Shown: positions 20,482 through 43,830, counted from the first letter of the stretch. The stretch: DNA of 64,000 nucleotides from Lentisphaeria bacterium (GCA_041690595.1 JAWLHB010000013.1:62001-126000); one strand, 5' to 3'. Made by a program: numbers and translations. The notes: generated from the letters alone by a model not told the origin.

Positions 20482-20510
20482 TTGACTTCGGAACCGGCCA
20501 TTGGTATAAT
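20482..20510 (+). promoter_or_regulatory. Near-consensus sigma70 promoter of GntR-SBP locus 1
   Basis: TTGACT-17 bp-TATAAT with an extended -10 TG. Confidence 0.75.
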
Positions 20511-20548
20511 GGTACGAGATCAATCAACCAATAAGGAAGCCTGCGCTC

Positions 20549-22009
20549 ATGACACGACTTGTCGACGCGGAATCGCATGCGGAAGCACAGCGCGTGGAGC
20601 ACCTGGTGGTCGCGCGGATCGCGAAGCTCGCCCAGGGAGATCGGCTGCAGCCGGAGCGTGAGCTGGCGCAGGATCTGAAGGTTGGGCGTGGGGTGTTGCG
20701 AACTGTCCTGGGGCAACTGGAGGAGCGCGGCGTGATCTCGCGCCAGCGACGAATCGGGACGGTGGTGAACCCCCGAGCGCTGGAAAAACTCCAGCCGACG
20801 TTTTATATGGGGCGGAAGGATCCGCGGGCGATGCAGCCCAATTCCATGCGCCGCCTGCGCAACGAGCTGAGCCATGCGTTCGCGGATGAGCTGGCGGCGG
20901 AGCTTCTCGGCTACCGCCTGCAGCCGATGCCACACGAGCCGGATCATCGCCAGGTCATCACGAGCGGACGGCCGACCATCATCGGCAGCAGCGGTGTCCA
21001 TCTGCCCGACGCGGTGGCTTTCGGCGTCTGCGAGGATCTCACCGAACGGGTGCGCGGTTGGTCCGGAGCGGAGACGATCTGGCCGAATCTCTGGGAAGCG
21101 TCGACTCTCGGCGGCAGGATATTCGCCATCCCCCAAGCCGCCCACGTCTACGTGCTGATCGGCAATCGCGACCAGCTGCGCAAGGCGGGAATTCACGCGC
21201 TGCCCGGCACCTGGACCGAATTGCGGGAGTCGGCCTTGCGTCTGAAGCAGGATTCCGGCTGCGACCATGGCTTCGGCATCGCGGCGGATCATCATCTTTC
21301 GTGGCTCTTCGAAGATCTCTGCTACCAGGCGGGTGGATGCACCATCCATGGACGCGGCGACGACTGGCGCCCCACCCTGACCAGTGAGCCTGTGGTCAGG
21401 GCGCTGAGCTGGCTGCGCGAACTCTGCTGGAACGACCAATCCTTCTTTGCGGCCCCGGATTCGAGGTCGCTGGTGGCGGATGTGGCCTCGGGCAGGTGCG
21501 GGCTGGCGATGGTGGAATGCGGCGGTTTCTTCAACGATGTGGTGTGGGATGGGCATGCGCACAATTCCTTCGAGGTAGCTCCATTGCCGTCGGGCCCGGC
21601 CGGACACCGGCTTTGCCAGGTGAGCCTGCTGCTCGATTTGATCAATGCCGCCGCGCCGGCAGAGGAACGGTCGGCAGGTTGGGAATGGCTCAAACTGACC
21701 CATTCGACCGAGAATTCGACTCGCTACTCGCGCTACCTGTGGCAACACAAGCTGGTTACCGGCTGGCCTCCCATTCTGCGCACCGTCAGCTATGCGGAGA
21801 CAGGGATCACCCTGCCCGTGAGCTGGTTCAACACCGTCCAGGACATCGTCGCCCGTGCACGGCCCCAACCTGCTGGACACGGCTGGGACATCGACATCTA
21901 TCTGCAGCCCATTCTGCGACGGATCCTGCAGGACCCCACCGCCGATCCCGAAACCGAGCTGGCCTCCGTGCAACGCCTGGTGCGCCCCGGATTGCGCTTT
22001 CTGAATTGA
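20549..22009 (+). CDS. GntR winged-HTH fused to a sugar-type solute-binding-protein domain
   Basis: [59 protein letters not shown] signature. No signal peptide. Confidence 0.85.
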
Positions 22010-22049
22010 GATGACATTCGTGAACATCACCCAAACCCAAAGGACTCTC

Positions 22050-22685
22050 ATGAAGCCCCCCACCCTGCACCGCCGGTCGCCGCGCCGATTCACCCTTATC
22101 GAGCTGTTGGTGGTTGTCGCGATAATCTCCATCCTCGCCAGCATGCTGCTGCCGGCCCTGAGCGCGGCCAAGGAGAAGGCCAGAGGCGTCGCCTGTCTCA
22201 ACAATCTCAAGCAGGTGGGCATGACGCTCGACTTCTACTGCAACGAGAACGAAGACTTCTATCCGCACTACTACAACGGTGGCGGTTTGGCGGGACAGCA
22301 TTGGATCCGGGCGCTGGCGCCGCTGATGAATCTGTCGCAGGATTACAACAACTGGCCAAAGACCAAGTGGATGCTGATCTGCCCCACGGCCCTGTCGTTC
22401 GACGAAACGTACATCAACACCTACAACAACAACAACAACTGGCTGACCAGTTACGGAATGAACGTGCGCTTCGGCTTCATGCGGCGCAACCGGGTCATCG
22501 ATGCATCGAGCAGGCTGGTGGTTACGGACAGCAGAAAGACCTACTTCGTCTATCGCCCGTGGTACCCGGACAAGCACAGTCAACGCCACTCCAACTACCG
22601 GAGCTTCCAGGGAGTGCTTGGGGACGGGCATGCCGAGAGCTACCTCTTCAACACCGAACCGCTGCGCAGTTGGGAGGTCCAATGA
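22050..22685 (+). CDS. Prepilin-type protein (DUF1559/H-X9-DG-like), pilin 2
   Basis: [47 protein letters not shown]11-DGH. Confidence 0.9.
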
Positions 22686-25600
22686 AGCGGGTGATCCTCT
22701 CTCTGCTCGCGTGGGGCGCCATGGCCGCGATGACCAACGGCGCACCAACGGGAAGCTGGCGGTATGACTTCGGCAAGGCGGAGCATGCCGTGCCCGATGG
22801 TTTTGTCGCTGTCGATCATCAGCAGCTCTATACGCCGGAAACCGGCTATGGCTGGGAAAAGAGCTGGGGATTCGCCCATGCAGGCGATGGCGAGGACCCC
22901 CTGCTTGCGGACGGGATCGGGGGGAGAGACATCGCGGCCGAGCGGGAAGCCTTCTTTCTGGTCGACCTGCCGGCCGGCGTCTATCGCATGACTGCCTGGC
23001 TGGGTGTGCAATCGCCGCGTGAGGGACGCTTCGGGCAGTGCGTCGGGGTGAACGGCAAGGTCCTGCTTGCGCCGCCGGGAGTTGGCGGCTGGGGCAAGAC
23101 CTTTGAACGCCGGATGCCGCTGGTGGTTGAGGATGGGCGGGCGCGCGTGCGCTTCTTTGTCGTGGGCGAGTCGACTTCCCATCGCCTGAGCCTACTGGGG
23201 CTGGCAATCGAACCGGCACCGACGGCGGAAGCGGATGGCGTGCGCCTGGCTTGGGATGCCGCCCCCCTCGAGGATGAGATACTCGGGCAAACGCTGACCA
23301 TCGGCGATCGAACCTTCACCGAAGTGGGCCGGCGGCGGGAGCTGCCGCTGGGGCCTCTGCCGGCGCCATGGGATCAGGCACCGCTCCTCACCTTTTCGCG
23401 CCCAAGCCCTGGCGACATCCTGCCGTACAGCATCCCCCGAATCAATGAGTTGACAGAAGCGGTGGCCACCTTCGCCGCCCCCGGCCAGACCCAGGCCATG
23501 GCGCTGGGCGTCCACGCTCGCACAGCAGTGGAAGATGTCCGCTGCGGCATCAGCGATCTGGTCTCCGGCGAGCATCGCCTGCGGGCCGAAGCCATCGAAC
23601 TCTTCACGGTGACCAGCCACGTCCAGTCCATTTCGGAGCGTCCCGGCAGCGTGGCGCAGCTCATGCCCGAGCTGCTGGAAAAGAATTGGCCCTTTTCGCT
23701 GGCAGCGGCACAGACGCAGCCCCTTTACATGCGGGTGAAGGTTCCGGATGAACAGCCCGCCGGCATCTATCGCGGCCATCTGACGCTCGACGCGGCCGGT
23801 CACCCGGCAACGAAGGTGGAGCTGATCGTACGCGTCATTCCCATTACCCTGGCAACCCCGCCCGACAAGACCTGGCACCTTTATGCGGATACGGATCGCT
23901 GGTTCACCATGAGCCGACGCGAGATGGAGCGGGAGATCGACGACATGCTGGCGCACGGCATCACCTCCATCAACGGGGGTTATCCGCCACTTTCGGGAGC
24001 GTTCATCGAGAAGGATGGCCGCATCGAAGATACCTATCTCGGGCGCCTGGAAGACGGGCTGATCTATGCGGCCTCCCGCGGACTCAAGGGGCCGATACTG
24101 CTCGGCGGCACCAGCGGCCTGATCTGGCGCTTCCGCGGCTGGTCGATCAACCATCGCGGAGAGGGGAGCCATGAGTACGACGAGGGCTGGAAAGGTCAGG
24201 CGCTGGCGGTAAACCATCCCGCCACGAAGGATGCCACCGGCCTCTCCCAGGTCTGCGGTACGCTCCTTTCGCCCGGCGAGTCCGTGCGCTTCTCCTTCCG
24301 GTTCAAGGCGGAGGGAGCCATCGTCGGGCGGCTGGGTGTGCGCTTCATGAAGACGTACAAACGCGATCCGGTCCAGGAAGGGCAACTCCACCTGCAAGTG
24401 CGGGCCGGTCAGGATGGCTGGCAGCACGTGTGGGGAACCACCGACGTGCCGATCGACGCTCCGTATGCCCAGGTCGTCGGCGATTTCAGCGGCAAGGGGC
24501 GGCTGTGGATCGATGAGGTCGAGCTGATGCCGGCGACGCGCGCCCATATCAATTACGTGATCAACCCCGGTTTCGAGCGGGAATTCGGTAATCTCGATCT
24601 GAACCAGCCGTGGCCGGACAGCTTCATGAGTGATTATCAGGATGCGCTTCGGGCGCTGGCCAAGGTCGGCGAACGGACGGGGCTGCCGATCTACATCGTG
24701 GGGACCGACGAGGCCGGCAATGACCCGCGGCATGCCTTCCGCGAGATCATGGAGCTGCGCGGCGCACATGAAGCCGGCCTCAAGACCTGGTGCAACCTGG
24801 CTCCTTACCTCGTCGAGAAACTCGATGGCATTCTGGACGCCACTTGCTTCTATGGCGACATGCTGGGCAGTGAAGAAGATTGCCAACGCCTCGTCGCCCG
24901 GGAGCATGCCGCACAGCGGGAGATCTACACCATCACCTCCGGCACCTACGAAGGACAGGACGCTGGCATGATGCCCAACCGCTATGGCGTCGGTTTCTTC
25001 TTCTGGCGATCCGGCGTCGACGGCACCGGCATCTGGACCTTCCAACGACCGGTTGGAGATCCGTTTGACGATTTCGACGACCAGTATCGCGATCATCTTC
25101 TGGTCTATCCGCCCCGCAATCCGGGCGAGGCGGCCATTCCGACCTTGGCGTGGGAAGGAATTCGCGAAGGGTGGAACGACTTCCGCTATGCCTACACGCT
25201 GGAAATGGCGGTCGCGGATGCCCGCCGGGATGGGCGCGACAGTCAGGCTGAGCAGGGTGAGGCTGTCCTGAACTTCGTGCGAACGGCGGTGCCATGGTAC
25301 GACGCGTATGATCCGGCTCGCTTTGACGATCAGGCCGCTGACCAGCTCCGTTGGCTGATCGCCTGGACGCTGCTGCAGCTTCAGGAAGGCGTTGCCGCGG
25401 ACGAGGCTACGGAGACGGACGGCGGCGAGCTGCGGATTGCCTTTGCCGATACCGCACCGGCGGCCCCACAAGCACCGATCTTCTGCCCGCCGTTGGCGAC
25501 TCCGCCGCTGATCGATGGCGCGCTGGACGATGAAATCTGGCAGCAGGCGACCATGCGGGAAGGCTTTGAACTGCATACGAGTGCCGGCGTGGCGGCCCCA

Positions 25601-26716
25601 ACCCAGACGAAGCTCTACCTCGGCCATGACCGTGATAACCTGTATGTGGGCATCCGCTGCCTGGATCCGAAGATGTCCGACCTCAAGGTCACCGCCACGG
25701 AGCACGACGGCAATGTCTTTGCCGATGATTCGATCGAGCTTTTCATCGACACCAATCACGACGCGTTCAGCTATCTTCAGCTCTGCTTCAACGCTGCAGG
25801 AACACGTTTCGATTCGCGTTGCGCGGGTGGTTACAACTACGGCAACAACATCTTCCAGGTCGCCTACGGCAGAAAGAAGGTGCGCGATCCCGAGTGGAAT
25901 GGCGACTGGCAGGTTCGCACCCGTCACTTCGAAGATCGTTGGGAGGCCGAGGTCGTGCTGCCCTTCAGCACCATCGGCCGCGACAGCGACCTGATGGGCA
26001 TCCTGGTCGGCCGCAACCGCAAGGCCGGCGGCCCCGAGACCTCGTCGATGGTTTCGATCGGCTTCTTCAACCAGCCGGATGCCTTCCCCACCCTGCTGTT
26101 GGGCGGAGCACGGAACGGCGAGAGCATGATCGAGCAGGTGGAACTGCCGGTGGCGCGCGCGGGCCATGCACAGGTCGCCATCTCCCTGCACCAAGCCCCC
26201 GCCTTCAGTTGCCAGGCCACCATTGCCACACCAGACGGAGAAGCAACGCAGTGGGGACCGATCACTGCCGCCGATGGCGTCGCCACCCTGCCCTTCCAGT
26301 TGCCCGCGACCTCCAGCACCGTCACCCTCGAAATCCGCGATGGGGAAGAGCTTCTCCACCGCCTGGTTCAACAAGCCTCCCCACCCGCACGCCTGCGGAT
26401 CCAGGCCGGAAAGCAACTGCTGACCACGGCCGATTCCGAGGCTCGCTATCGGCTGGCCACCCTCCTTACGCCGCGGGATCGCGAACAGTCCAAACTGGTC
26501 GCCGCCATTCGTCGCAACGGCGCGGTACTGGCTTCCGCGGAAAGCGCCATCGGCGGAGAGACGAGCGAACTGCGCTGGACTCACGCGGAGAGCCCGCGTC
26601 CCGGCTTCTACACCTTGGAGCTGCTGCTGGAAGGCAGCCCTGCGGGGGAACCGGAAAAGCTCAACTACCCGCTTGCCATCGTCCCTCATTTTCTGGAGAC
26701 CGTACCCGCACCATGA
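22682..26716 (+). CDS. Large secreted multidomain glycoside-hydrolase-like protein with CBM9/DOMON-like module
   Basis: Signal peptide [24 protein letters not shown]....GYGW beta-sandwich. TDEA and WEGIREG..DFRY (GH123/DUF4091-like). [10 protein letters not shown] and DDSIELFID (CBM9-like). Start 22682 by ATGA overlap. Confidence 0.7.
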
Positions 26717-28878
26717 CGCCACTGAACGTTCCGCTCCACCCCCTGCCGACGAATCAAGCCGGCTCTTCGCTCGTTGTCTCACTCCCCCTGCCCCCCTGGG
26801 AAGTCGATGTCGACATCCCCGGGGCGGCCACAGTGCAGAGGGTGCCGCTGGGTGAATGGCCGGCGCGTACCCTGCTCGATCCGCGGCTCCGCCGAGCCTG
26901 GCCCGCAAGCGAGATCGCCCAGCCCCGCGCCTTTGGCAATCCCCCCCGGCGCTGCCTGGTCGAGGCACGCTTCGATGGCGCGCTTCCAGCCGAGCTTCAT
27001 GCCCGACTGACCCGCCGCGAGCAAGCCGGGCCGGTACCGGTTGCGCCACCCGTCGCCACCGCGGTCCGTGCCGAGGAAGGCGAAGAGATCTACCACCACC
27101 GGGACGAAGAGCTTTACCACTACGTGCGCCGCGAAGATGCAGCGATCATCGTGGCTGGAGGAGAGCGCCTGCGCGTGCGTCTGGGCATGCTGATCCATGA
27201 CCAGCGTCGCTACTGGCAGTGGGTCACCGCTATTCCAGCCTGGGAAGGCGAGTTGAGCACCGCCTGCACCGTCGGTGGCCACATCTATGCCGGCCCCGAC
27301 GAAGACCGGCCGATGACCATTGCCGAAGCCAAGCAGGTGGAGAAGCTCTCCTATTTCGAGGAGTGTACGATCAGCGCCAAGGCCTTCATCGTGCTGCATG
27401 ACGATGGCGCCATGGAGGTCGACTGCCACTTCGCCAACATCCAGGGCTACGGGCGCGGCAAACTGGCGCACGGGCTGCCGATTATCGAGATCGAGCGGGA
27501 AGATCTGCCCGGCGCCGAAGATCTGTGGCCGGAGACCGATGAGGGGAGCACCGAGACGGAGGGCGGCCTGTGGCGCTGGCAGCCGCTGACCAGCACCCGG
27601 ATCTGGCTGGGCAATCGCTGGCAGGGGGGACTCATGCTCGCCGACGGCGCGCCGATTCCCCATCACGTGCGCGACTCGGAGAAGGGAATGGTATCGGGTG
27701 TGGGACGCAGCTTTCGATTCACCTGGCGCCTCCAGCCGCAGTCCCAATTGCCGACGCGTTGTCTCGCGGAACCCACTTGGTACCTGCGTTGCGGCATTCA
27801 CGGTTTGCCCGTGCGCGAAAGCAGCGAGCCGGAAGGCGCACTCCGGCGGCTGCGGGAAAAGGCAGTCGAGGTCTTCAAGCGCAACGTGCACCCGGACGGC
27901 ATGAGCCGCGGCGGCGTGTATCGTTATCTCGATCAACAGCCGGACGGCCGATACGAGCTGTCGCTGGACGGCAATGAGAGCGCCTTCATTCTCCGAGCTG
28001 CCTGCCAGGAGCGGGACGGCGAGCTGTACCGGCTCGGGATGGAAGCGGCACGCTGTGTGGCGGACATCGGCGTGGACCACAACGATTTCAACGTGCATTA
28101 TCACGGCGACACCGAAGAGTGGTCGCTCTACTCGCTGATCTATCACCGCTTCGGCGGCTTGGTGACGGCGTGGCAGGAGAGCGGCGATCCCTGGTATCTG
28201 GAGATCTCCGAGGCGGTGGCCAATCGCTGGATCTCGGTGAACCGGCAGAATCAGCCCCGGCAGAACATGGGCCGCGACGCCGAGCCGGTGGAGGGCATCC
28301 TGATGCTCTTCGATGCAACCGGCAAGGACCACTATTTCGTCGAGGCGGAGAAGATCGCGCTGGATGTCGCGCGTTCCCTCTTTGCCGACGGCACCTGGCG
28401 CAGCGGTTTCGGCGTCGGCCCCTATTGGGGAACCAACGCCCTCCGCGGCCAAGCCTGGAACGGCAGCCACCTGCTCGCGGGAATCGCCGAGTTTCTCTTT
28501 CGGGCCGCGCCCGCCACCTCTCCCCATCATGCTTACCTGCTGGAGCGCGCCGTGACCCTGGTGCACGGCCTCTGTCGAAGCATCGATGCCGACTACGGCG
28601 GCTTCCACCGCACCAGCGGCAGTTTCCTGCTGCGACGCTTCGCCCTGATCGCGGAGCTTGCCGGCGATACCGGCCTGCAGGCAAAGCTGACCACCGTCTG
28701 CGCGGGTATCCTGGCCGCCTTCGACAAGGATCCCGATGCCTTCTTCACGACCGGCCACCACTGCGGTGGCTACCTCGATGGCCCGCGCGTCTGGGCCTCC
28801 CTCGACTGGACCACTCCCGCAGCGCAGGAGGAGACTCCCGACGTGCTCGGGAGCCTCAACAGGTCCAACGCGGGATGA
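26713..28878 (+). CDS. Hypothetical protein, possible (alpha/alpha)-toroid glycan lyase/hydrolase
   Basis: ATGA-coupled to the upstream gene. Repeated helical motifs (WQESGDPWYLE, FDATGKDHYF) typical of six-hairpin folds. No signal peptide. Confidence 0.55.
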   Translation: MTPLNVPLHPLPTNQAGSSLVVSLPLPPWEVDVDIPGAATVQRVPLGEWPARTLLDPRLRRAWPASEIAQPRAFGNPPRRCLVEARFDGALPAELHARLTRREQAGPVPVAPPVATAVRAEEGEEIYHHRDEELYHYVRREDAAIIVAGGERLRVRLGMLIHDQRRYWQWVTAIPAWEGELSTACTVGGHIYAGPDEDRPMTIAEAKQVEKLSYFEECTISAKAFIVLHDDGAMEVDCHFANIQGYGRGKLAHGLPIIEIEREDLPGAEDLWPETDEGSTETEGGLWRWQPLTSTRIWLGNRWQGGLMLADGAPIPHHVRDSEKGMVSGVGRSFRFTWRLQPQSQLPTRCLAEPTWYLRCGIHGLPVRESSEPEGALRRLREKAVEVFKRNVHPDGMSRGGVYRYLDQQPDGRYELSLDGNESAFILRAACQERDGELYRLGMEAARCVADIGVDHNDFNVHYHGDTEEWSLYSLIYHRFGGLVTAWQESGDPWYLEISEAVANRWISVNRQNQPRQNMGRDAEPVEGILMLFDATGKDHYFVEAEKIALDVARSLFADGTWRSGFGVGPYWGTNALRGQAWNGSHLLAGIAEFLFRAAPATSPHHAYLLERAVTLVHGLCRSIDADYGGFHRTSGSFLLRRFALIAELAGDTGLQAKLTTVCAGILAAFDKDPDAFFTTGHHCGGYLDGPRVWASLDWTTPAAQEETPDVLGSLNRSNAG

Positions 28879-28893
28879 TCGGCAGGCCCGTCT

Positions 28894-30012
28894 CTACAGC
28901 GACTTCAGCCCTTCAACGACGATTCGTGCCTTTTCGAAAGGCACGGGCGCCGGCAGGACGCCCGCCGAGGTGAGGAAGATGCGGCGGCGATCGGGACAGG
29001 CGGCAAGATCCTGACGCACGGTCTCGACGATGACCTCTGGAGAAGAGAGCCAGAGCGTGGCGTTCGTACCGCCGATAAGACACTTGGAGGGCATGCGAGT
29101 GCGCCCCTCGACTAGAGAAACGTCGCCAAGCGGCCGCGTTGTATACGCTTCGTTGGCCATGGCCGGCAGGGCATCGATCATCTCGAGCAGCAGGTTGAGG
29201 GTGCCGCACATGTGGTGAACCGGAATGCAACCATACTCCAGAACGGCGTTGCCGTAGGCCGTCAGATGAGGGACGCAGTAGCGTTTGAAGAGCGAAGGGC
29301 TGATCAAGGTGGTGGAGGTATTCTCCGTGAGCCAGTAGGTGTCTGCCTTGTAGTGGGGCATCGCGGCCTTGATCTGGCGGAGATGATCCTCGTGCATGAG
29401 CGCCATGATCTCATCGATCAGCGCGGGTGCATCGGCGAGATGGTACATCAGTGCCTGGGGGCCGCAGTCATGTTCGAGCAGACGCATGAGGGGGCTGGGG
29501 CCGATTCCACCACTGCTCACCCCATCCAGCTCTTCGGCGATGTGCCGCTGGCGCTCCGCATGCGGCGCCAACTGCGCCGGATCGACGTGATATTCGGTAT
29601 CCGTATAGTACCAACGCAGAGCCGCCAGGTTGGGCAGCGTCTCCGCATAGCAGCTCTGCGGGTGCCAACTGCTGGTGTATGGATCGACCTTGTCGGTCTT
29701 GGTGAGTATGCCGTCGGGGGTCTCCAGGACCGTGGTCAGCACATCGCCCTCGCGGTGACTCTGCTCCACAACGTGTGGCCGATGGGCGACCAGAGGCAAG
29801 CCGCAGCCGAGTATCATATCGCAGCCGGCCGCCCTCAGCAGCGCCACGGCATCCATGCTTCGATACGGTTCCGGCTGCGCGTTCTGCCAGGTCGGATTCG
29901 TCATCTTCAGCCAAACGGGAAAGCGATCGACCTCCTCGCCGCGCAGCACCGCGAGCATGCGTTCACGAGAAGAAGTGGAAACACCCGGGGCAAACCTGGC
30001 AATCGTACTCAC
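28894..30012 (-). CDS. URO-D/MtaA-like family protein
   Basis: SSRERMLAVLRGEEVDRFPV, ENTSTTLISP, HHMCG. Paralogous to 11106..12239. Confidence 0.78.
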   Translation of the reverse strand: MSTIARFAPGVSTSSRERMLAVLRGEEVDRFPVWLKMTNPTWQNAQPEPYRSMDAVALLRAAGCDMILGCGLPLVAHRPHVVEQSHREGDVLTTVLETPDGILTKTDKVDPYTSSWHPQSCYAETLPNLAALRWYYTDTEYHVDPAQLAPHAERQRHIAEELDGVSSGGIGPSPLMRLLEHDCGPQALMYHLADAPALIDEIMALMHEDHLRQIKAAMPHYKADTYWLTENTSTTLISPSLFKRYCVPHLTAYGNAVLEYGCIPVHHMCGTLNLLLEMIDALPAMANEAYTTRPLGDVSLVEGRTRMPSKCLIGGTNATLWLSSPEVIVETVRQDLAACPDRRRIFLTSAGVLPAPVPFEKARIVVEGLKSL

Positions 30013-30042
30013 GATGGAACCTCAGAGCTGGTGGTAGTCGTA

Positions 30043-33990: not shown

Positions 33991-34707
33991 ATGAAGAAGC
34001 TGCTCGACAAGCTGCGTTCCGGCCACCACGTCACCATTGTGGCGCTGGGTGACTCGATCACCGAGATCACCTTCCACACCCATGGCCACATGAACTGGGT
34101 GGGGCTCCTCTCGGAAGCCATCTTCGAGCGCTATGGCAACGGTATCTGCACCATGATCAATGCCGGCAAGTGTGCCAGCACCGCCGAGGAAGCGCTGACC
34201 CGCCTGGAACGTGACGTCCTGCGCTTCAGCCCCGATCTGGTCATCATCGCTCTCGGCATGAACGATGCCGGCCGCGGTCGACAAGGGCTGCCAACCTATA
34301 TCCAGCAGCTGCGCGAAATTGTCAGCCGCACCCGTTCGCATTGCGGGGCGGAGATCCTGCTGCGGACGCCGAACCCAGTCGTCACCTGCCATGGCTTGCC
34401 GCTGCCGGTTGAACAGCCCGCGCCCGGGCGGCCCTGGGAGCATGACCGCCGGCCACTGGCCGACTATGCCGCCGCCCTTGTCGAGCTGGCGACGGAGCTG
34501 GATTGCGCCGTGGTCGACCACTACACGCTTTGGCGGGAGCGGCAGTTCAAGGTGATGCATGCTGTGGCGGATCCCACCGGCCTCTGGCCGCGCATGGGCG
34601 ACGCCATTCACCCTGGCTGGCAAGGCCATCTCGCCTTCTACCGCGAGCTTGCCCCCCTCTTCGACCTTCCGCTCTACTTCCCCTGGGAAGAAGCAGCCGA
34701 CCGCTGA
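33991..34707 (+). CDS. SGNH/GDSL hydrolase (esterase)
   Basis: GDSIT, INAG, GMND, DAIHP blocks. Confidence 0.88.
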   Translation: MKKLLDKLRSGHHVTIVALGDSITEITFHTHGHMNWVGLLSEAIFERYGNGICTMINAGKCASTAEEALTRLERDVLRFSPDLVIIALGMNDAGRGRQGLPTYIQQLREIVSRTRSHCGAEILLRTPNPVVTCHGLPLPVEQPAPGRPWEHDRRPLADYAAALVELATELDCAVVDHYTLWRERQFKVMHAVADPTGLWPRMGDAIHPGWQGHLAFYRELAPLFDLPLYFPWEEAADR

Positions 34708-34749
34708 CGCCCAAATCTCGATGCCCATGAGGTCAAGCAGGGCGGAGGA

Positions 34750-35160: not shown

Positions 35161-35183
35161 TTAGGCAGGCGAACCTTACGGGC

Positions 35184-35227
35184 TTGACAGAGTCAAAGCA
35201 CGTGAACAGGTTGCCGTGACTATGTCA
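35184..35227. promoter_or_regulatory. Two TGAC-N3-GTCA palindromes (putative operator pair)
   Basis: TTGACAGAGTCAA (35184-35196) and TGACTATGTCA (35217-35227) upstream of pilin 3. Extended -10 TGATACAAT at 35292-35300. Confidence 0.45.
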
Positions 35228-35333
35228 AACCGAAAGCGCCGAAAAAGATGGGGTTGTGGCGCTTGTTTTGGGTGGCAGGACGCGTAATGTATGATACAAT
35301 GTGAACGATCTTCAATGCCAAAAGGAGCAACAG

Positions 35334-35981
35334 ATGCATAAGGGAACCAAGCGCAAGACCTTCACCTTGATTGAATTGCTGGTGGTCGTGGCGATAATTG
35401 CCATTCTGGCGTCGATGCTGCTGCCGGCTCTATCCAATGCCCGTGAACGGGCGCGGGCGATCAGTTGCATCAGCAACATGAAGCAGATCGGCCTTGGCGT
35501 GGTACTGTATGCGGATGAGAATGACGGCCATCTGCTGCCGCATCGTCAGCCGCCCGGACCGACGTACCATGCCACGTACCTGAGTGCCGCGATGGGCGCG
35601 AAGCACAATGACAAGGAGGGCATCTGGTGCCCGTCGAGCACGGATCCCATTTCCTATGGCCTGAACATCTATGTGCATCGGGATATATGGAGTGGCGGAT
35701 GGACGCGGAAGATGGACTCTTTCCGGGACCCCTCGCTGGTCTTTTCCTTTGCCGACAGCATGGCCGGTGCCTTCATCGCGGGATGGAACAACGGTAGCGG
35801 CAACCAGGGATTTGCGCACATGCGCCACTCCATGGGGCTCAACATTCTCTACCTGGATCAGCATGCGGCGCGCTACTCGGAGCAACTGATTCATGCCGGC
35901 ACGAATGCCAGCGGCGCTTGGCCGATTCCAGTCAACAAGGGTATGTTCTGGCATGGCAACAAGGGCTGGAATACGCCGTAG
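35334..35981 (+). CDS. Prepilin-type protein (DUF1559/H-X9-DG-like), pilin 3
   Basis: [52 protein letters not shown]9-DQH. AAGGAG RBS. Confidence 0.9.
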
Positions 35982-36088
35982 CGGCGGCAGCCCGAGCGCC
36001 ATGTGAATACGGCAGCCTGTGGCTGAGTCAGGGCATGAGGGCCGCGGGTATGTCGTTCACCTGAATCCCCAACCTGCCGGAGAGTCCC

Positions 36089-37636
36089 ATGCGCCACGTT
36101 GCATCGTTTCTGGTCTTTTCCCTGCTCCTCATGACCTGCGCCTCAAGCGTCAGGGCCGATGACGATGTTCAGCCTGAGGACGGGGCGAGCAAGAGCCTCC
36201 ACGGGCACCTGAAGGCGGCAACGATCCCTGTTTTTCGGGAAGGGCATTCGCTGCTGCCGCTGTCGCGGTGGGGGTGGTCGATGCCGTTCGAGGTTCGCGT
36301 AGAGCTGGCGGAGCGCTGGGGCTATGCGCTGGAGTTCGGCGACTATGCAACGCACCAGCAGGTGGATGAAGTCGAGAAGAACCCGCAAAGCGTGAACGCC
36401 CGGCTCATCGCGCTGACGGCAGCGGATCCGGAACGGTATCCCCTGGCCGTGCTGACGCATCGGCCATTGAGTGGCAGATCGCTGGAGACGATGCCGGAGG
36501 ACCTGCTGGCCGACTATTATCTGCGCGATGCCGATGGGCAGGTGATTCCGGACGAAAAGACGGGTAAAGCGAGTTGGCGGACAATCGACCCGCTGGCTCC
36601 GGATGCCATCTTCGAGTGGGCAGCGGCGGAGACCCTGGCGCCGTTGCTGCGTCTGCGCGAAAAAGCGCCGCTCGCCGTCATCCTCAATGGTGGGGAATAC
36701 GGGCTGACGGTAGCGGGTCATGCGCTCAAGTACTGGGAGCAATCGCCGGCCGTGCTGGCGGCGAAGGGAGAAAAGAGCTGGCTCGACTTCATGTCCGAAC
36801 AGAAGACGCGTCAGGAGCTGATCATCAGCACCGCGGTGCGCGAGGCTTTTCCTGAACGCGATGTCTACCTTTGGTATCACTTCGCGGGGATTCCTTCCTG
36901 GGATGGTCCCGCCTACAGCAATGGTCCGGAGTTACTGGCCGTCTCGGACTTTCCGGATCAGAGCCTCTACTATCGCCATTTCAATACGGGTTGGGACGGC
37001 AATCGCGATCTGCTGACCAACTTCCTGCATGCCACGGCGCAGGCCATTCCTCTGGGCCATCCGCTTTCCTACAACTGGGTCTGCGGGGGCTGGAAGGAGG
37101 AGGCGATTTCACCGGCGGACCGTTATCTCGGCTTCCTCAAATGTCTGTATACCGGCGGCCAGATCGGGGCAGTGGCGGGATACTTCAGCCTGCCGGAAGG
37201 GCTGAAAGGCGATCTGGTCGGGGAGGAGCCGCCGCCGCACCTGCGACAGATGATGGCCCTCGGCCACGCACAGGCGCTCTTCTCGCACGTCGATGAATTT
37301 CTGCGCGCGGGGGATCTCCTTCCCGGTCCACATCCTCACTCGCGGGAGGCAAAGCTGCCTGCCTATGAGTTTGGGGAACCGTGCGACACGGCGCGGGTCC
37401 TGGTACGCCGACATCGCGATCGGGCTGCCTGGCTGATCTGCGCCTGGGCGGCGGCCGGCGATGCCCGCGAGGTCACCATACAGGTACCGGAGCTGGGCGA
37501 AGCGACTGTGCTGGCGCGCCCGGCGGGGAGTCTTTACCTCGCCACCTCGCGCCATGCGATCGACTACGAGCCGCCGGTGGTCAGCCTCAAGCTGCTGGAT
37601 ACCGACCCGCTGGATCCGACGGCAGACTGGCGGTAG
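36089..37636 (+). CDS. Secreted hypothetical protein (possible glycoside hydrolase-like barrel)
   Basis: Signal peptide ending VRA. Trp/Tyr-rich, with NGGEYG acidic motif. Follows pilin 3. Confidence 0.6.
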   Translation: MRHVASFLVFSLLLMTCASSVRADDDVQPEDGASKSLHGHLKAATIPVFREGHSLLPLSRWGWSMPFEVRVELAERWGYALEFGDYATHQQVDEVEKNPQSVNARLIALTAADPERYPLAVLTHRPLSGRSLETMPEDLLADYYLRDADGQVIPDEKTGKASWRTIDPLAPDAIFEWAAAETLAPLLRLREKAPLAVILNGGEYGLTVAGHALKYWEQSPAVLAAKGEKSWLDFMSEQKTRQELIISTAVREAFPERDVYLWYHFAGIPSWDGPAYSNGPELLAVSDFPDQSLYYRHFNTGWDGNRDLLTNFLHATAQAIPLGHPLSYNWVCGGWKEEAISPADRYLGFLKCLYTGGQIGAVAGYFSLPEGLKGDLVGEEPPPHLRQMMALGHAQALFSHVDEFLRAGDLLPGPHPHSREAKLPAYEFGEPCDTARVLVRRHRDRAAWLICAWAAAGDAREVTIQVPELGEATVLARPAGSLYLATSRHAIDYEPPVVSLKLLDTDPLDPTADWR

Positions 37637-37643
37637 CGAACGC

Positions 37644-38714
37644 TCAGCGCGACTGCGTCACCGGTTCGAGCGCGGGCTCCCGCTCCCTGACGGCCGGTGG
37701 GTTGGGCAGCGCGGGGATATGAACGTAATCGGGATCGGTCTTCTGGCGGCGGAGGATGGCGAGGATCTCGCGCCAGGTGGCCAGGATACCGTCATTGGCG
37801 GGGGGCAGATCGTGCTCGATGAGGCGGCGGAGCCGGGGCAGGTTGTAGAAGGGAACGGCGGCATACATGTGATGCTCGATGTGGTAGTTCATGTTCCAGT
37901 AGAAGAAGCGGGCAATGGGGTTGAGCATGAAGGTACGGCAGGAGAGGCGGAAGTCGTTGACGTTGGGTGAGAGGCCCGCATGCTGCGGGAAGCCGACCAG
38001 CATGGCCAGCCAGCCGGCAAACATCCAGCCAAAGCTGACCAGCGGAATGAGGAACCAGGCCCCCAGGCTGATGAAGAGCACGGCCAGGAGCGCGTGACCC
38101 GCCAGAACCATGCGCGACCAGTTGGCGATCTCGCGGCGACTTTGGGTGTCGCCTTCCGGAAAGAGGAAGGTGAGCCATTCTCCCTCGATCTTTCCCCGCG
38201 CCAGCTTCCAGTTGTTGCGGATGGCGTTGATCGGGGCAAGGGGATTGCAGGTCAATGCGTAGAGCCATGAGCTGGCCTTTAGCTTCGCCGGGAGGACGAC
38301 TTCGCCGTCATAGTCTTCGTGAACGGTCACGGCGTGATGTTTGGTGTGACTCACCCGGAAGATGACGAAGTTGCTCCAGCTCAGGAAGCAGAAGATGCGG
38401 ATGAAGAACTCGTTGAGGGAACGGGTCTTGAAGGGTGTACGGTGGGAGAGTTCGTGACCGGGGCCTGCCATGCCGAGGAAGCCGGCAAAGGTGCCATGCA
38501 GAAAGACGGTCGCCACCGTGACGTACCAAGGCCAGTGATGATAAGAATGCAAGGCCAGCCAGGTGGTGGCGACGAAGAGCGCAAGCTGCGGTATCACCTG
38601 GAGGAAAGCGCGCAGGTCGCTGCGGCGGGTCAGCTCGCGCAAGCTCTCCTTGTCGATCTGGCAGCGATACCAATTGATTCGGACATCGTCGGTAAAGGGT
38701 TTCGTTCTGGCCAT
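37644..38714 (-). CDS. Fatty-acid desaturase family membrane di-iron enzyme
   Basis: His boxes HELSH, HTKHH, HIEHH, VPFYNLP, hydrophobic helices. Confidence 0.88.
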   Translation of the reverse strand: MARTKPFTDDVRINWYRCQIDKESLRELTRRSDLRAFLQVIPQLALFVATTWLALHSYHHWPWYVTVATVFLHGTFAGFLGMAGPGHELSHRTPFKTRSLNEFFIRIFCFLSWSNFVIFRVSHTKHHAVTVHEDYDGEVVLPAKLKASSWLYALTCNPLAPINAIRNNWKLARGKIEGEWLTFLFPEGDTQSRREIANWSRMVLAGHALLAVLFISLGAWFLIPLVSFGWMFAGWLAMLVGFPQHAGLSPNVNDFRLSCRTFMLNPIARFFYWNMNYHIEHHMYAAVPFYNLPRLRRLIEHDLPPANDGILATWREILAILRRQKTDPDYVHIPALPNPPAVREREPALEPVTQSR

Positions 38715-38804
38715 GCTTCAGCTCCCGTAGTCATGAATGTTGATGATATGCTTACTACCCTATATGGATTCCAGATTTAAAACGAGATGCAGTATAGCGA
38801 AGAA

Positions 38805-38895
38805 CTATCCGTGGTTGTCAAAGAGCTATCCGTTGGTTACGGCGGGAAATGGTGGGTTGTCAAGTAGACCAGGCTGGGTTAGAGTATAGACCAGG
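38805..38895. promoter_or_regulatory. Direct repeats and GntR-type operator candidates in a divergent promoter region
   Basis: CTATCCGT(T)GGTT at 38805 and 38826 (21-bp spacing). TAGACCAGG twice (about 38865 and 38887), the second within GTATAGAC (GTNTANAC-like). Confidence 0.45.
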
Positions 38896-38906
38896 AGGAA
38901 GCCGCC

Positions 38907-40427
38907 GTGTCCAAGCAATGGTTTGAGGAAGCAATCCAGCCACGGACGAAGCAGGAGAGCGTCAAGAACGCGATCCCGAAGTATGTGCGGGAGCATGACC
39001 TGCGGCCGGGCGACCAACTGCCGTCGGAGCGAGAGCTGGCGGCACTGACGGGCTTCAACCGGCTGACTATCCGGAAGGCGGTGAAGGAGCTCTGTGCGGA
39101 AGGGGTGCTCGAGCAGGTGCCGAAGCGCGGCACCTTTCTGCGGCAGGTGGAGCAACGCCATGAAGAGGACGGAGTGGATGCCATCTTTGCGCCCATGGGG
39201 AGCTTTTTCATTCGGCCCCAGATGCGAATGGTGCGCTTTGCCTTGGACGACGTGATGCCGGAACAGCAGGCCGCGTGGCATCGCATTGTGGAGGGCTTCC
39301 AGGAAACGCATGAGGGGATCGCGGTCAAGTTGGATTTTCGCGATGGTGCGCAGCTTCGCGCGCCGCAGGCAGCCGCCACTTACGATGTCGTACTGGGAAC
39401 GCTGAGGCTGCTGGCACTGCGCAGTGCGGAGGATGACCTTCCCTCGCCGGGCTTCGGGCCGGACTGGTTCGAGCGGCATCCTTGGCTGGACGCCTATCCC
39501 AAGGCTCTTCGGGCGAGGCTGGAGGGGGCACTTCGGCATGGCGATGGCTATCTGGGAGTGCCAATCTATGCGGCGGTTCCCCTTCATGTGTACCGTCGCG
39601 ACCGCCTGGAGGAGTTGGGGCTGAAGGAACCACCGCATCAGCCATCGCTGGAAGAGCTGGCGGATTGGCTGACCAGTGTCCGCGCCATGGGCAGGGCCGT
39701 CTCGGCCTATCCTTTCGTGCAATCACTGTTGAACCACCTGCTGCGCCAGGATCGGGAGCTCATCAACGGGGATCCGCTGTCAGGGCTGAACCTGGACCGG
39801 CCATCGTGCCGCCGGGTGCTGCCGCTGCTGCGCGCCTTCGATTCGCGGCAGAGCGGGCAACCGAGCGTCTGGCAGGTGCTTCGTTCGCTGGGGAAAGGCG
39901 AGGCGGTCTCGCTGGAGCTTTTCAGCAATGCTTTCATCTGGCTGCCGGGCCTCATCGGCCGACAATTGGATACGCTCTCCGCGGTGGGATCGAGTCTCAG
40001 TGGATCGGGGCAGTCCCAGGTGATGTTTACGGTCGCCATGCTGGGACGGGATCTGAGCCGGCATGCGGAGGCAGTCGCCTTCTGCCATTATCTCGCCTCG
40101 CCTGGTGCGCAGCATCTGATCGCGGAGCAGCTGACGGGGCTGCCGGTCAGTGGCGAGCCGGAAGGGTTGACTAGCTTCTGCAAGCGGAGTCCCCTTGCGG
40201 ACGTGGTGCTGCGCGACGAGCTGGGGCGGGCGGAATCGTGCTTCGAGCATCCGTGTTTCACCTCGGAGTATCAGCAGCAGATCCTCGGGCCGGCGCTGCA
40301 ACTCTATCGCCAGGAGGCAATCCAGTTGGACGACGTTATTCGGCAGGCGGAGAACGGCTCGCGGGAATGGGTGGGTATGCGGACACAGCTTCCATGCTTC
40401 AACGCTCTTACCGGAGGGAAATCATGA
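38907..40427 (+). CDS. GntR winged-HTH fused to a solute-binding-protein domain
   Basis: PGDQLPSERELA..RLTIRKAV..GVLEQVPKRGTF HTH. GYLGVP..YRRDRLEELGL..P SBP signature. No signal peptide. Confidence 0.85.
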   Translation: MSKQWFEEAIQPRTKQESVKNAIPKYVREHDLRPGDQLPSERELAALTGFNRLTIRKAVKELCAEGVLEQVPKRGTFLRQVEQRHEEDGVDAIFAPMGSFFIRPQMRMVRFALDDVMPEQQAAWHRIVEGFQETHEGIAVKLDFRDGAQLRAPQAAATYDVVLGTLRLLALRSAEDDLPSPGFGPDWFERHPWLDAYPKALRARLEGALRHGDGYLGVPIYAAVPLHVYRRDRLEELGLKEPPHQPSLEELADWLTSVRAMGRAVSAYPFVQSLLNHLLRQDRELINGDPLSGLNLDRPSCRRVLPLLRAFDSRQSGQPSVWQVLRSLGKGEAVSLELFSNAFIWLPGLIGRQLDTLSAVGSSLSGSGQSQVMFTVAMLGRDLSRHAEAVAFCHYLASPGAQHLIAEQLTGLPVSGEPEGLTSFCKRSPLADVVLRDELGRAESCFEHPCFTSEYQQQILGPALQLYRQEAIQLDDVIRQAENGSREWVGMRTQLPCFNALTGGKS

Positions 40428-43180
40428 AGATAACCATCGCTTTGCTACTGCTTCTCGGCTCGTGCACCCTGGCGGCGGAGTTTCGTCCTTCGGAGCGGGG
40501 CATCACGATTGTGACGGAGCGCTATGAGATTGTCTGGCGGGATGGCGCGGCCCACGAGATCAGTACGCTGCTGCCGCGGCGGCAACTGCTGACGCTGCCG
40601 GACGGGGGCATGAGCGCCGCCGAGTTACCGGTGGGCATGGGCTCGTTTCATGGGCAGGCGAAGGAAGAGTGCATGCAGAACCGGATCCTCTACGGACTGG
40701 ATCTGGAGAAAGAAGCGCCAGCTTATCCCGCGCAGTTCGCACCCGGGGAGTCGAGCCGGCTAACCGTGGAAGAGATACCGAATGGACGACGACTGACGTA
40801 TTCGGGGTTGGGCAGCGACACGAGTGCCACCCTTGTTCAGGAGTTGACGGTCGAGCCGGCGACAGGGGAACTGCTGATGCGGCAGCGGGCCCGCAGTGAG
40901 AATCCGGGGCTCTTCGGGATCAGCATGACGCTGCTCAACCTGCGACCGGATATCGATTTCGCGGTGCCATACTTTGGCGGCCAGCGCTTCGGAGGGAGCA
41001 TGGAAGGCAACCAGCTCGTTAGCTATTCATGGCCGCAGTTCTGGCAGGCGGGGTTGCTGGTGGGTGAGTTGCCGGAAGGGGGTTCCTTCTTCCTGATGTC
41101 GGACGACGGCGAGCTTCGTCCCAAGTACTTCAAGCTCTATCATACGGATGCGCGGCAGGGTCTGAGCGTGCAGCATTCACCGGAGGGACCGTACGATGAG
41201 GTGCGGGAGATCGAGGTGGCGCCGTGGCGCTTCAACACCTTTGGGGGCAACTGGCTGGAGCCGGCGATGCGTTACCGCGCCTGGCTGACGGAGACGTATG
41301 ACCTGAAGCCGATGACGGAGCGGCCGGTGACCTGGTTCGACCAGATCGCGCTGGCGTATGCGGCGTATCCGTCAATCACGGCGTTGGAGACGTTGGCGAA
41401 GAAGATTGATCCGAAGCACATTCTGGTGATCGATCTGGGATGGGCGGAAGGCTTCAACCGCAAGGCGCCGCTCTACACCCCGCGCAGCAAGAACTACCGG
41501 GAATCGGTGGATGCCGCGCATGCGCTGGGCGTTCGCCTGGGGGTGTATACAAGCATGAAACTGGTCGATCATCATGCGCATCCCTTGATGATGCACGAGA
41601 TGGGGGTGACCTATTTTTACGATGCCTTGAACAGCGATCCGCCGCCACCGCCGGCGCCGGTTGTAGAGGCACCCGACCGTCACTTTCTGGCGTACATCCA
41701 TCCCGGAAGCAACCGCTGGATAGACTTCTACAGCGACGTGATGGTGGATCTGCAGAATCGCTATGACCTCGACCTGCTGTATCAGGATGTGTCCGGGGGG
41801 CAGCGCGGCAGCGCCGGGGTGATCGACGGGCGCGGTCTGCACCAGGGAACGGTGGCCTGCGATGCCGCGATTCAGCGCAAGCTGCCGACGACGGCACTTG
41901 GCGGCGAATACTGGTCGGAGGTGATGATCGCCGGTGGTGAGGTGATGGGGCTGCAGAACATGATGTCGTGGTTTGGCGAGGGGCATCAGGAGCGGCTGGC
42001 TCGTCACGCGCACCCGATCCAGTCAGCGATATTTGCGCCGTTCAGCACCTACATGACCTACAAGACGCCGATGCGCAGTGGCGCCAAGTTTCACTACGAC
42101 CAGAACCAGATCGAGGCGATGGGGGCGATCCCTACCTGGAAGGGGGCTGCTGACGAGCGTGGCGGCGAGGCGGACATTGTCCTCAGCCGCGCGAAGCTTC
42201 TGGCGGAAGGCTTTCGGCCGCATTTCCCCGAGGCGTGGGCGGCCAACGTGTCGGGCTACCTTCGGCACCCGGACGGGCGGATCATTCGCTACGAGCGCGA
42301 CGGGTTGAGTTCATTTTGCTATGAGGGCGAGGCGCTGCGCTATGCGCGGATAACCGGGAGATCCGCCTGGCAGGGGGCGGAGCCGGTGCATATCGATGGC
42401 TGGCATGCCTACGCAAATGGCGGCCCAATCGGGCTCGATGCGGAAAGCTGGTACTGCCTGATGCCGGGAGCGTCCACGGCTGGACGGATCACCGTACGTG
42501 AGCTGTGGGAAGGGACGTGGATCACCGGTTCGCGGGAGAGCGACACATATACCCTCATCACCTTTGGCGGCGCCGGCGACGGTGAGCTGAAGGGGGAGCT
42601 GGTGACTGATGGGACGCCTGCCGTTCGACTGGTCGAGCCGGGGCAGGTGCTGCTGGCGGCAGACGCAAGCGCACCGCTGACGGTCGTCGACGAGCCCCTG
42701 GCACTCGATGAATGGCAGAAGGTAATCGTGGCGCAGGGCCGAGTCCTGCAGGAGACGGAGTGGCATCGTCCCCCCACCCGATGGCAGCTCGGTGAAAAGA
42801 CGATGATGGGCTATACCGTCTTTCCCCCACTTGGCGGGGCTGGATCAGAGATTTCCATCGACAGCTATGTGGAGCTGCCGTCGAGCAAAGCCCTGGCGTT
42901 GCGAGTGCATCTGGGGCGCCTTGGCGGTGCGGGCGACGGCGTCCACTATGTGATCCGCGTCAATGGCCGGGAGATCTGGCGCCAGCTGAGCCCAGGGACG
43001 GAGCGTGGCTGGGAGACGGCGGTCATTCCGTTGTCCGAGTATGCAGGGAAGAGTGTGGTGCTGAGCCTGGCCGTGGACAATGGGCCGTCCGGCTTCAGCC
43101 TCAGCAACGACGCAGCCATCTGGGGAGAGCCGATGTTTGTGGAAGAGGAACCAATCACCGAAGCTCCGGCTTTGGATTAA
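40424..43180 (+). CDS. Large secreted glycoside-hydrolase-like protein with a C-terminal NPCBM-like module
   Basis: Signal peptide [17 protein letters not shown]. Barrel-like [21 protein letters not shown] segment. C-terminal GDGV..VNG..AIWGEP. ATGA-coupled to the regulator. Confidence 0.65.
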
Positions 43181-43197
43181 CACGAGGAAGAACCATT

Positions 43198-43830
43198 ATG
43201 CAAACGCAAAGACGTTTCACCTTGATCGAGCTTCTGGTCGTCATCGCGATAATAGCCATTCTGGCGAGCATGCTGCTGCCGGCGCTGTCGCGAGCGCGGG
43301 AGAAGGCGAAGAGCAGCGGCTGTTTGAACCAGCAGAAGCAGTTGACGCTGATCAACCAGGTTTACGCGGATGAGCAGGATGGGCACATGATCGTGCCGCG
43401 CGTACCCCCGTCGTTCATGTGGGCGCAGTACTTCTATCTGTATACGCATTACTTCGACGCAAGTACGTTGCGCCTGCTGAAAGATCCGGGCCGGGAGACG
43501 GGTAAGAGCTTCAACATCTACGACGGCAATGCCTACGACTATTCGCTGAGCACCTTCATGGCGAACATCCCACGCGTACCGGCACTCAACCAGTGGGCAC
43601 AGATTCACCGCATCACCCGCGCTTCGGACACGGGTTGGCTCTTCGACTCGAGCGGCCCCTATCAGAGCCATCCTTCTGTGTGGCCGACACCCATCCGCCA
43701 CGGCAATGGCTCCAATGTCGGCTTCATCGACGGCCACTGCAGCTTCCTGCTGGCGACGGAGACGCGCTTCATTCCGCCAGCAAATTACCCGTATATGGCC
43801 TCGGCAGCCTGGCCAAACTTCGTGCAGTAA
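43198..43830 (+). CDS. Prepilin-type protein with H-X9-DG motif, pilin 4
   Basis: [56 protein letters not shown]. Confidence 0.92.

Follow-up and report, generated by a model that had tools for sequence, protein, structure and literature searches.

A recurrent unit of GntR-type regulator, DUF1559-type pilin and exported glycan-active protein in the genome of a Lentisphaerota-like bacterium

We analysed a stretch of 64,000 nucleotides (GCA_041690595.1, JAWLHB010000013.1:62001-126000; the whole of it is hereafter called the window) from the genome of a Victivallaceae-like, Lentisphaerota-like bacterium, in which genes for pilin-like proteins of the DUF1559 type lie in tightly packed operons together with GntR-type regulators and large proteins predicted to be exported and to act on glycans. 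This combination of regulator, pilin and exported glycan-active protein is a real unit that recurs throughout the genome, of which the window offers one view. The link between sugar sensor, private pilin and exported glycanase is statistically solid, and a near-constant assembly helix is common to the pilins. We tentatively propose, with somewhat less than even confidence, that the DUF1559-type pilins are induced by sugars and can replace one another as subunits of a common type IV filament, which would work together with the exported glycanases, most likely in the capture or uptake of glycans. To our knowledge the DUF1559/H-X9-DG family has no known function, and we found no description of a regulator-pilin-glycanase cassette in the literature searched.

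Co-occurrence of regulators, pilins and exported proteins

Gene calling relied on codon bias, with a caller trained on the genome from which the window comes (8.1 Mb, 99 contigs, 97% complete), and genes on the same strand with gaps of no more than 120 nt were taken as one operon. With a hidden Markov model (HMM) of the prepilin N-terminus (E<1e-5) and an iterated helix-turn-helix profile, we obtained 206 pilin-like open reading frames (ORFs) and 107 GntR ORFs, numbers matched by Pfam searches of the genome, whose counts are lower bounds. A pilin is the next same-strand downstream gene for 52 of the 107 GntR genes, where 1000 label shuffles give 2.8 on average and never more than 10; it is adjacent to 60 of them (7.6 expected) and lies within three genes of 80 (20.6 expected). 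The effector parts of 87 of the 107 regulators fall in one BLAST cluster, and 49 of those 87 have a pilin directly downstream. Among the GntR regulators sampled from pilin operons, 15 of 17 combine the GntR domain with Peripla_BP_3/1, an AraR-like arrangement. The association recurs in a related genome of 6.4 Mb, where Pfam matches 90 GntR and 56 DUF1559 genes and where 9 same-strand pairs of GntR followed by DUF1559, 1.1-1.7 kb apart, were counted by eye against about 0.3 expected by a rough estimate.

The position of the pilin within its operon is also far from arbitrary. Of 182 operons that hold a pilin, 126 (counted by hand) have it in first place or behind a leading GntR gene. The gene that follows looks exported in 81 of 117 cases, versus 1059 of 4849 (22%) outside pilin operons (Fisher p = 5e-27, by a crude signal-peptide test), and its product has a median length of 834 aa versus 348 aa elsewhere. 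We then compared 40 random pilin operons, the window's own left out, with 40 size-matched operons without pilin or GntR, taking up to three genes per operon (94 of 162 in each set) and Pfam matches at E<=1e-5. Counted as glycan-degrading, by a list picked by hand, were GH123_N, GH20, DUF4838, GH42, GH2, GH38, heparinase II/III, PL22, sulfatase and CBM9, as well as SGNH esterases, DUF2961, melibiase and MGH1-like families. Such domains occur in 31 of 94 proteins of the pilin operons versus 5 of 94 in the controls (Fisher p = 1.5e-6), and at least one is present in 23 of 40 pilin operons versus 5 of 40 control operons (Fisher p = 4.4e-5). An earlier note, drawn up from the window's sequence alone, had expected pilins of this kind to keep company with GntR regulators and glycan-active genes across the genome, and on both counts the genome agrees. 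Proteins without any Pfam family are likewise more frequent in pilin operons (39 of 94 versus 13 of 94, Fisher p = 3.5e-5), and many of them exceed 1000 aa; these operons, rich in large exported proteins without a named family, are therefore a likely source of new glycan-active enzymes. One of the sampled pilin operons (L025) is a canonical type II secretion system (T2SS) with true pseudopilins.

The pilins themselves combine a constant helix with a variable head, as the earlier note had supposed. The first 30 mature residues have a mean identity of 75% among 193 pilins, and 168 of 197 pilins are at least 70% like a single consensus over 35 residues, a consensus to which the GspG/H/J-like pseudopilins of the canonical T2SS on contig C53 are only 29-40% alike. 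Conservation runs well beyond the membrane span, to about residue 45, which suggests packing in a common filament or handling by a common assembly machine. The heads, in turn, are hypervariable: among the 117 pilins with a downstream partner, BLAST finds likeness over half the length in 107 of 6786 pairs. The median mature length is 233 aa, most of the pilins match just the first 30-60 of the 268 positions of the Pfam DUF1559 model, and the strict H-X9-DG motif is present in 73 of 193. Public homologues keep a core made of a Cys at the helix end, Cys-Pro, Tyr and His-x4-Asn-x4-Asp-x-His.

Machinery that could assemble such pilins is encoded elsewhere in the genome. The T2SSE family gives 19 matches above cut-off, including 8 long frames of the GspE/PilB type and about 6 of PilT size; there are 6 secretin matches and one match to a prepilin peptidase (Peptidase_A24, partial, 33.8 bits). 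A cluster on contig C7 (Table 1) is a candidate for the assembly machine that the orphan pilins would share; no gene for a T2SSF platform protein was noticed there. As for receptors and importers, the genome has 4 TonB-dependent barrels, no match to SusD_RagB, 31 ATP-binding cassette (ABC) permease matches and 12 SBP_bac_1 matches, three of the 12 inside GntR fusion frames. ABC sugar importers are seldom found near pilins: a pilin lies within 7 kb of 2 of 9 SBP_bac_1 loci, and there is no sugar importer among the 94 sampled pilin-operon proteins. On contig C37 (70877-76136), an ABC sugar importer made up of SBP_bac_1 and two permeases is immediately preceded by a DUF1559-type pilin, with a secretin/GspE pair close by. 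SBP_bac_1 and BPD_transp_1 also share one open frame at three places (C3:267608-272775, 1222 aa; C76:8149-13094, 989 aa; C5:254504-259000, 954 aa), which points to ABC importers whose binding protein and permease form one chain.

The loci of the window

Two operons, at 20549-28878 and 38907-43830 and both on the plus strand, each hold a GntR-SBP fusion, a pilin and a large protein predicted to be exported, so that all the parts described in the earlier note are present by gene calls and Pfam (Table 1). The genes of operon 1 are separated by a 1-nt gap and then overlap twice by 4 nt. The third unit of that description, a pilin paired with a secreted protein, is found at 35301-37636, its 515-aa partner having a signal peptide. 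The neighbouring GH78, sialidase-like, PL22-like and SGNH genes are all real by Pfam, and the lack of importers in the window was also borne out, no match to TonB_dep_Rec, SusD or BPD_transp_1 being found among 50 window proteins scanned.

Table 1. Features of the window, with positions counted from its first nucleotide, and the candidate assembly cluster on contig C7
Feature	Position	Strand	Basis
Fourth DUF1559-type pilin of the window, outside the span of the units	5332-6312	+	DUF1559 30.6 bits, N_methyl 27.8 bits
Promoter-like TTGACT-17 nt-TATAAT ahead of operon 1	20482-20510	+	read from sequence
Regulator 1: GntR winged helix + SBP_bac_1, 486 aa, without signal peptide	20549-22009	+	Pfam GntR 37.8 bits, SBP_bac_1 33.7 bits (cut-off 26)
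Pilin 1: prepilin-type N-terminus, DUF1559-like start, H-X11-DG near C-terminus	22011-22685	+	DUF1559 21.9 bits (cut-off 23.3)
1344-aa predicted exported protein with signal-peptide-like N-terminus: AGA-YXIM_GBD (galactose-binding-like), Glyco_hydro_123_N_2, CBM9	22682-26716	+	Pfam; GH123 N-terminal 31.6 bits (cut-off 27)
721-aa protein, last gene of operon 1, without family match or signal peptide	26713-28878	+	
SGNH gene	33991-34707		Pfam
Pilin 2 (unit 3): N_methyl + DUF1559, H-X9-DQ	35301 (likely ATG 35334)-35981	+	DUF1559 27.8 bits
515-aa exported protein with signal peptide (unit 3), conserved family without name	36089-37636	+	
Regulator 2: GntR + SBP_bac_1, 506 aa	38907-40427	+	Pfam GntR 54.5 bits, SBP_bac_1 26.9 bits
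918-aa predicted exported (possibly lipoprotein) DUF6259-like protein	40424-43180	+	DUF6259 26.2 bits, below cut-off 28.7
Pilin 3 (operon 2): N_methyl, exact H-X9-DG	43198-43830	+	
BNR sialidase-like gene, without signal-peptide-like start	43833-44957	-	
PL22-like gene, without signal-peptide-like start	45178-46335	+	32 bits, N-terminal part only
GH78 gene, without signal-peptide-like start	46315-48435	-	
Cluster: DUF1559-type pilin, secretin, PilM-like, two unknown genes, MshEN+T2SSE ATPase, 748-aa exported protein, TPR/PMT_2	C7:121407-133481	-	

All window pilins have the N-terminal consensus of the DUF1559/SBP_bac_10 family in common. N_methyl (PF07963) and TIGR02532 score above their cut-offs in pilins 2 and 3 and in the pilin at 5332-6312, while pilin 1 reaches 22.5 bits on TIGR02532 (cut-off 16.3) and 20.9 on PF07963, just below 21.2. 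Pilin 3 has no DUF1559 match at E<=0.01 and scores 17.5 bits on TIGR04294 (cut-off 19), to which pilins 1 and 2 show no match. The H-X9-DG motif named in the earlier note is exact in pilin 3 only, being altered in the other two (H-X9-DQ in pilin 2, H-X11-DG in pilin 1). GspG (TIGR01710) gives 26.5-33.7 bits on the window pilins versus a cut-off of 88.85, over the N-terminal 45-60 of 134 model positions only. An AlphaFold2 (AF2) model of pilin 2 (pLDDT 77) has the lollipop shape of a helix (residues 12-62) followed by a 4-stranded sheet, and its matches are pilins and pseudopilins at modest Z of 3.5-5.2, the best being PilA4 (5.2), PilV (5.1), ComP (5.0), EpsG (4.7) and PulG (3.8); Foldseek returned nothing for it at E<=0.001.

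The partner proteins appear to be carbohydrate-active. The 515-aa protein, which has no Pfam or NCBIfam match and no PDB match with a profile of its family alignment, belongs to a family with 358 relatives (45-69% identity among the 120 matches listed) and was modelled by AF2 with a pLDDT of 90 as a TIM barrel with a beta-sandwich. The 41 Foldseek rows shown for this model are all carbohydrate-active enzymes, except one untitled Planctomycetota protein, and its best VIA matches are GH42 enzymes (Z 17.8, 17.0 and 15.9; the top one with a root mean square deviation of 4.5 over 372 aligned residues), so that a GH42-like fold is predicted. The earlier note's idea of glycan-active partners, which would have been weakened by partners devoid of any carbohydrate-active fold, has thus gained from the match of this model to glycoside hydrolases, and the 1344-aa protein adds GH123_N and CBM9 domains. 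The 918-aa protein has a signal- or lipoprotein-like N-terminus and an Atlas lead (0.98) to DUF6259/NPCBM clusters; across 300 other genomes from its phylum, and 5 further ones, its relatives are just 24-29% identical. PDB sequence searches with the four large proteins returned no relative. The 515-aa family is found in other settings too. In two Armatimonadota metagenome-assembled genomes (MAGs; L090:6367-8319 and L128:2803-4998) an orthologue adjoins a DUF6785/DUF6784 membrane protein, and in a MAG labelled Dolichospermum (L119) a relative lies within an apparent exopolysaccharide synthesis cluster with a sulfotransferase, GT4 genes and a Wzy-like gene, a context which suggests that the family may also trim self-made glycans.

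The two regulators of the window differ from the usual type of the genome. Both are singletons with an SBP_bac_1 fold, and judging from domain matches GntR + SBP_bac_1 is a rare architecture, peculiar to the window, the genome's usual one being GntR + Peripla_BP. The GntR-SBP fusion that the earlier note had taken as a part of the cassette is therefore present in both window operons, whereas genome-wide the part is mostly played by the other architecture. Regulator 2 has only 6 full-length relatives at E<=1e-29 (HMMER, 1.84 billion representatives), 25-32% identical and none from the source genome, a word-based search with its SBP part found nothing beyond the protein itself, and no paper on a GntR + SBP_bac_1 fusion was found in the literature searched. 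A direct repeat TGGTA-N3-TGGTA overlaps the perfect TATAAT -10 box of operon 1 (20500-20515). Upstream of operon 2 (38800-38900), a direct repeat TAGACCAGG is present at 38865 and 38887, together with a second repeated word, CTATCCGT(G/T)GGTT. By their placement, these repeats are candidate operators for the two unusual regulators.

Other genes lie among these glycan loci. A 683-aa protein (31775-33826, minus strand) carries two Ser/Thr kinase domains in tandem, and a 741-aa kinase (15909-18134, minus strand) ends in a PLDc_N domain. Three URO-D/MtaA-like genes, of the methylcobamide methyltransferase-like kind, are located at 11106-12239 (minus), 13996-15084 (plus) and 28894-29958 (minus); the same family was met in a sampled pilin operon (L040), in a control operon (L046) and beside an orthologue of the 515-aa enzyme (L086). 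These genes may have a role in sugar demethylation.

Possible roles of the private pilins

Under the proposal of a shared filament with interchangeable subunits, the regulator would sense a sugar or oligosaccharide in the cytoplasm and de-repress its operon, the prepilin would be cut by the single prepilin peptidase, and the pilin would be polymerised by a shared machine, for which the C7 cluster is the candidate. The resulting type IV filament, either a pilus or a pseudopilus-like structure, would act at the cell envelope with the operon's large exported glycan-degrading protein, and its retraction by a PilT-like ATPase could draw the glycan towards the exported enzyme and on into the periplasm. 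Each operon's private pilin would then most probably serve in the capture or hauling-in of that operon's polysaccharide. A bolder version, which we regard as doubtful, holds that there is one pilus with about 170 interchangeable subunits, and that every polysaccharide, once sensed in the cytoplasm, induces the pilin head and exported glycanase particular to it, the composition of the retractile filament, rather than SusC/D or TonB receptors, deciding which glycan is caught and pulled in. If this were true, it would provide a function for the huge DUF1559 family of Planctomycetes-Verrucomicrobia-Chlamydiae (PVC) bacteria and Armatimonadota, and would identify the subunits of the glycan-binding fibres of Planctomycetes.

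Whether a given head belongs with a given enzyme can be judged within the genome and across genomes. Within the genome, pilin and partner duplicate together: relatedness of the heads goes with relatedness of the partners in 14 pairs, versus 2.6 expected (maximum 10 in 2000 permutations), and all 5 partner pairs that are at least 40% identical have related heads (29-66% identity). Across genomes we gathered 80 loci with a relative of the 515-aa protein (36-67% identity) from Lentisphaerota, Armatimonadota, Planctomycetota, Verrucomicrobiota and others, 70 of them having at least 1 kb upstream. Neighbours of the family are not conserved in 25 other genomes, with no TonB, SusD or sugar ABC gene among 99 flanking ORFs scanned.

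Several observations weigh against a glycan-capturing filament. A pilin lies directly upstream of the 515-aa orthologue in 1 of the 70 loci, even in DUF1559-rich phyla, and 6 of the 80 loci have a pilin anywhere within about 6 kb (HMM and regular-expression searches concordant). At that one locus (L081), in a Victivallaceae MAG which is the related genome of 6.4 Mb mentioned above, the enzyme is 67% identical to that of the window, yet the pilin shares just the helix (54% over 59 residues), and its head has no similarity to that of pilin 2. A 62% paralogue of the 918-aa enzyme, on contig C49, lies in an operon without pilin or GntR. Since these enzyme families also occur without a pilin, the private pilin is not their obligate companion, and since the head diverges even where the enzyme is conserved, the simple notions that the head binds this glycan or that it binds this enzyme are both weakened. 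The earlier claim of a substrate-specific pilin for each locus therefore stands as regards the recurrence of the cassette, but is weakened as regards a fixed pairing, the 515-aa orthologues being without an adjacent pilin at 69 of 70 loci and the head being unrelated at the remaining one. The modelled head of pilin 2 is a small generic type IV pilin fold without a recognisable lectin or CBM module. In 48 of the 182 pilin operons the pilin is alone or is accompanied by GntR alone. The list of glycan-degrading families was chosen after the output had been seen, and gene calls, operon limits and signal peptides come from crude heuristics. Finally, the function, be it capture, uptake or export, is one that we infer.

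Export is the subject of the main rival explanation, which we place on the unlikely side. Here the private pilin would be a cargo-specific pseudopilin in a T2SS-type piston, which pushes the neighbouring enzyme through a secretin or holds it on the surface. This would fit the large, exported-looking products encoded after the pilin in 81 of 117 cases, the co-duplication of pilin and partner, and the several secretins and GspE-type ATPases of the genome, and GspG gives the best NCBIfam score for the N-termini of 3 of the 4 window pilins, even if far below cut-off. The Pul secreton of Klebsiella, which is co-regulated by maltose with its cargo pullulanase, offers a model for such an arrangement. 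Yet members of the same enzyme families do without an adjacent pilin at 69 of 70 orthologue loci and in the case of the C49 paralogue, and an adaptor's head is not kept next to an enzyme that is 67% identical. Translational coupling of the pilin with the next gene shows no excess (25% overlapping junctions versus 35% in other operon pairs), and neither do lipoproteins among the partners (4 of 81 versus 89 of 1059), and the pseudopilins that belong to the canonical T2SS on C53 are of quite another kind. When the C-terminal 220 residues of 94 partners were compared by BLAST in search of a common export tag, no cluster exceeded 5 members and none contained a partner from the window.

It is distinctly unlikely, in our view, that the pilins have no glycan-specific role at all and are fast-evolving pilins for surface variation or adhesion, placed at operon heads and linked to glycans through operon duplication and shared regulation. 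The hypervariable heads, which are not conserved beside a conserved enzyme, are what such a role would produce, the adjacency of pilin and enzyme is lineage-specific, 41 operons consist of a pilin alone, and copying of whole operons can explain the co-duplication. But the association is strong and positional, the pilins standing right after sugar-sensing regulators and right before exported enzymes; the glycan-active domains are enriched over controls, and the association recurs in a second genome. A bindosome-like arrangement, in which the pilin-type N-terminus would only serve to fix or arrange a small binding protein in the periplasm or at the inner membrane, with no filament being formed, so as to supply transporters, could appeal to the Pfam name SBP_bac_10 with the solute-binding label found in passages of a 2009 paper (PMC2754498), to the pilin-type (class III) signal peptides described for sugar-binding proteins of the Sulfolobus bindosome in part of another (PMC3047682), and to the one pilin just upstream of an ABC sugar importer on C37, but it is very improbable, because ABC sugar importers are seldom near pilins (2 of 9 SBP_bac_1 loci within 7 kb, none among the 94 sampled proteins), the head is modelled as a pilin fold and not as that of a periplasmic binding protein, and a helix conserved to about residue 45 fits the packing of subunits better than a simple anchor.

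Relation to known systems

The archaeal bindosome proteins have a periplasmic-binding-protein fold and an adjacent ABC transporter, in contrast to the predicted pilin-fold heads and the rarity of importers near them here. AraR-type GntR regulators resemble the window's two regulators in that a GntR winged helix is fused to a sugar-binding fold and heads a sugar operon; however, their effector domain is a LacI-type Peripla_BP, whereas the two regulators carry the SBP_bac_1 fold of ABC-type binding proteins instead. Like the T2SS pseudopilins (GspG-K) and the Pul secreton, the window pilins would be subunits of a type IV filament, and sugar co-regulation with a secreted glycanase would be another common trait. 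They differ from pseudopilins in their low GspG scores (at most 33.7 versus 88.85 bits), and the canonical T2SS of this genome has pseudopilins of its own, with a different helix. We know of no T2SS with cargo-specific pseudopilins.

The operons also recall the polysaccharide utilisation loci (PULs) of Bacteroidota, being probably substrate-regulated and joining a regulator, a surface or envelope component and exported glycanases. In those loci SusC and SusD are adjacent, whereas here the genome has no SusD and the window no TonB receptor, with 4 in the whole genome; that the pilins take the place held there by SusC/D, as the earlier note put it, is an analogy. Planctomycetota, Verrucomicrobiota, Lentisphaerota and Armatimonadota degrade complex and sulfated polysaccharides and, as far as we know, mostly do so without Sus-type receptors. 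The same phyla count the DUF1559/H-X9-DG proteins among their largest paralogue families.

The pilins described here share with the DUF1559/SBP_bac_10 (PF07596) and TIGR04294 families of PVC bacteria the FTLIELLVV prepilin N-terminus, a DUF1559 match just past the helix, the C...CPS...YG.N...RH-x9-DGH core and the huge number of paralogues. They are different in their short heads, of which most match only the start of the family model, and in their wiring to sugar regulators and glycanases, which was not found in the literature searched. Our literature search returned no paper that gives DUF1559 a function, and nothing related to the H-X9-DG motif. Passages of a 2023 paper speak of 68 DUF1559 paralogues 'of unknown function' in P. 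limnophila (PMC10632474), and the text seen of the 2009 paper calls DUF1559 a solute-binding family, after the Pfam label (PMC2754498).

Precedents for pilus-dependent glycan uptake, by analogy, come from the fibres of Planctomycetes and from Akkermansia. According to part of one report, dextran binds to pili-like fibres of the crateriform structures in Planctomycetes, with a possible link to uptake (PMC5394234); these are polysaccharide-binding fibres of PVC bacteria, as the filament proposed here might be, but the present system belongs to a Lentisphaerota-like bacterium and is known from its genes alone. In Akkermansia muciniphila, also a PVC bacterium, glycan uptake is tied to type IV-like pilus genes: passages of two reports state that mucin uptake requires mul genes encoding pili, and that aquatic Akkermansiaceae share a conserved type IV-like pilus locus (PMC12418764, PMC13174399). 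Pilin, PilM-like, secretin and TPR genes come together in the C7 cluster, which in this resembles the mucin utilisation locus (MUL) with its pili and its periplasmic or TPR proteins required for mucin uptake. The latter is one conserved locus with one pilin-like protein, whereas the genome analysed here has about 200 private pilins under separate sugar regulators. The cassette also connects the DUF1559 pilins with the scant experimental signs that PVC bacteria take up glycans by means of pili.

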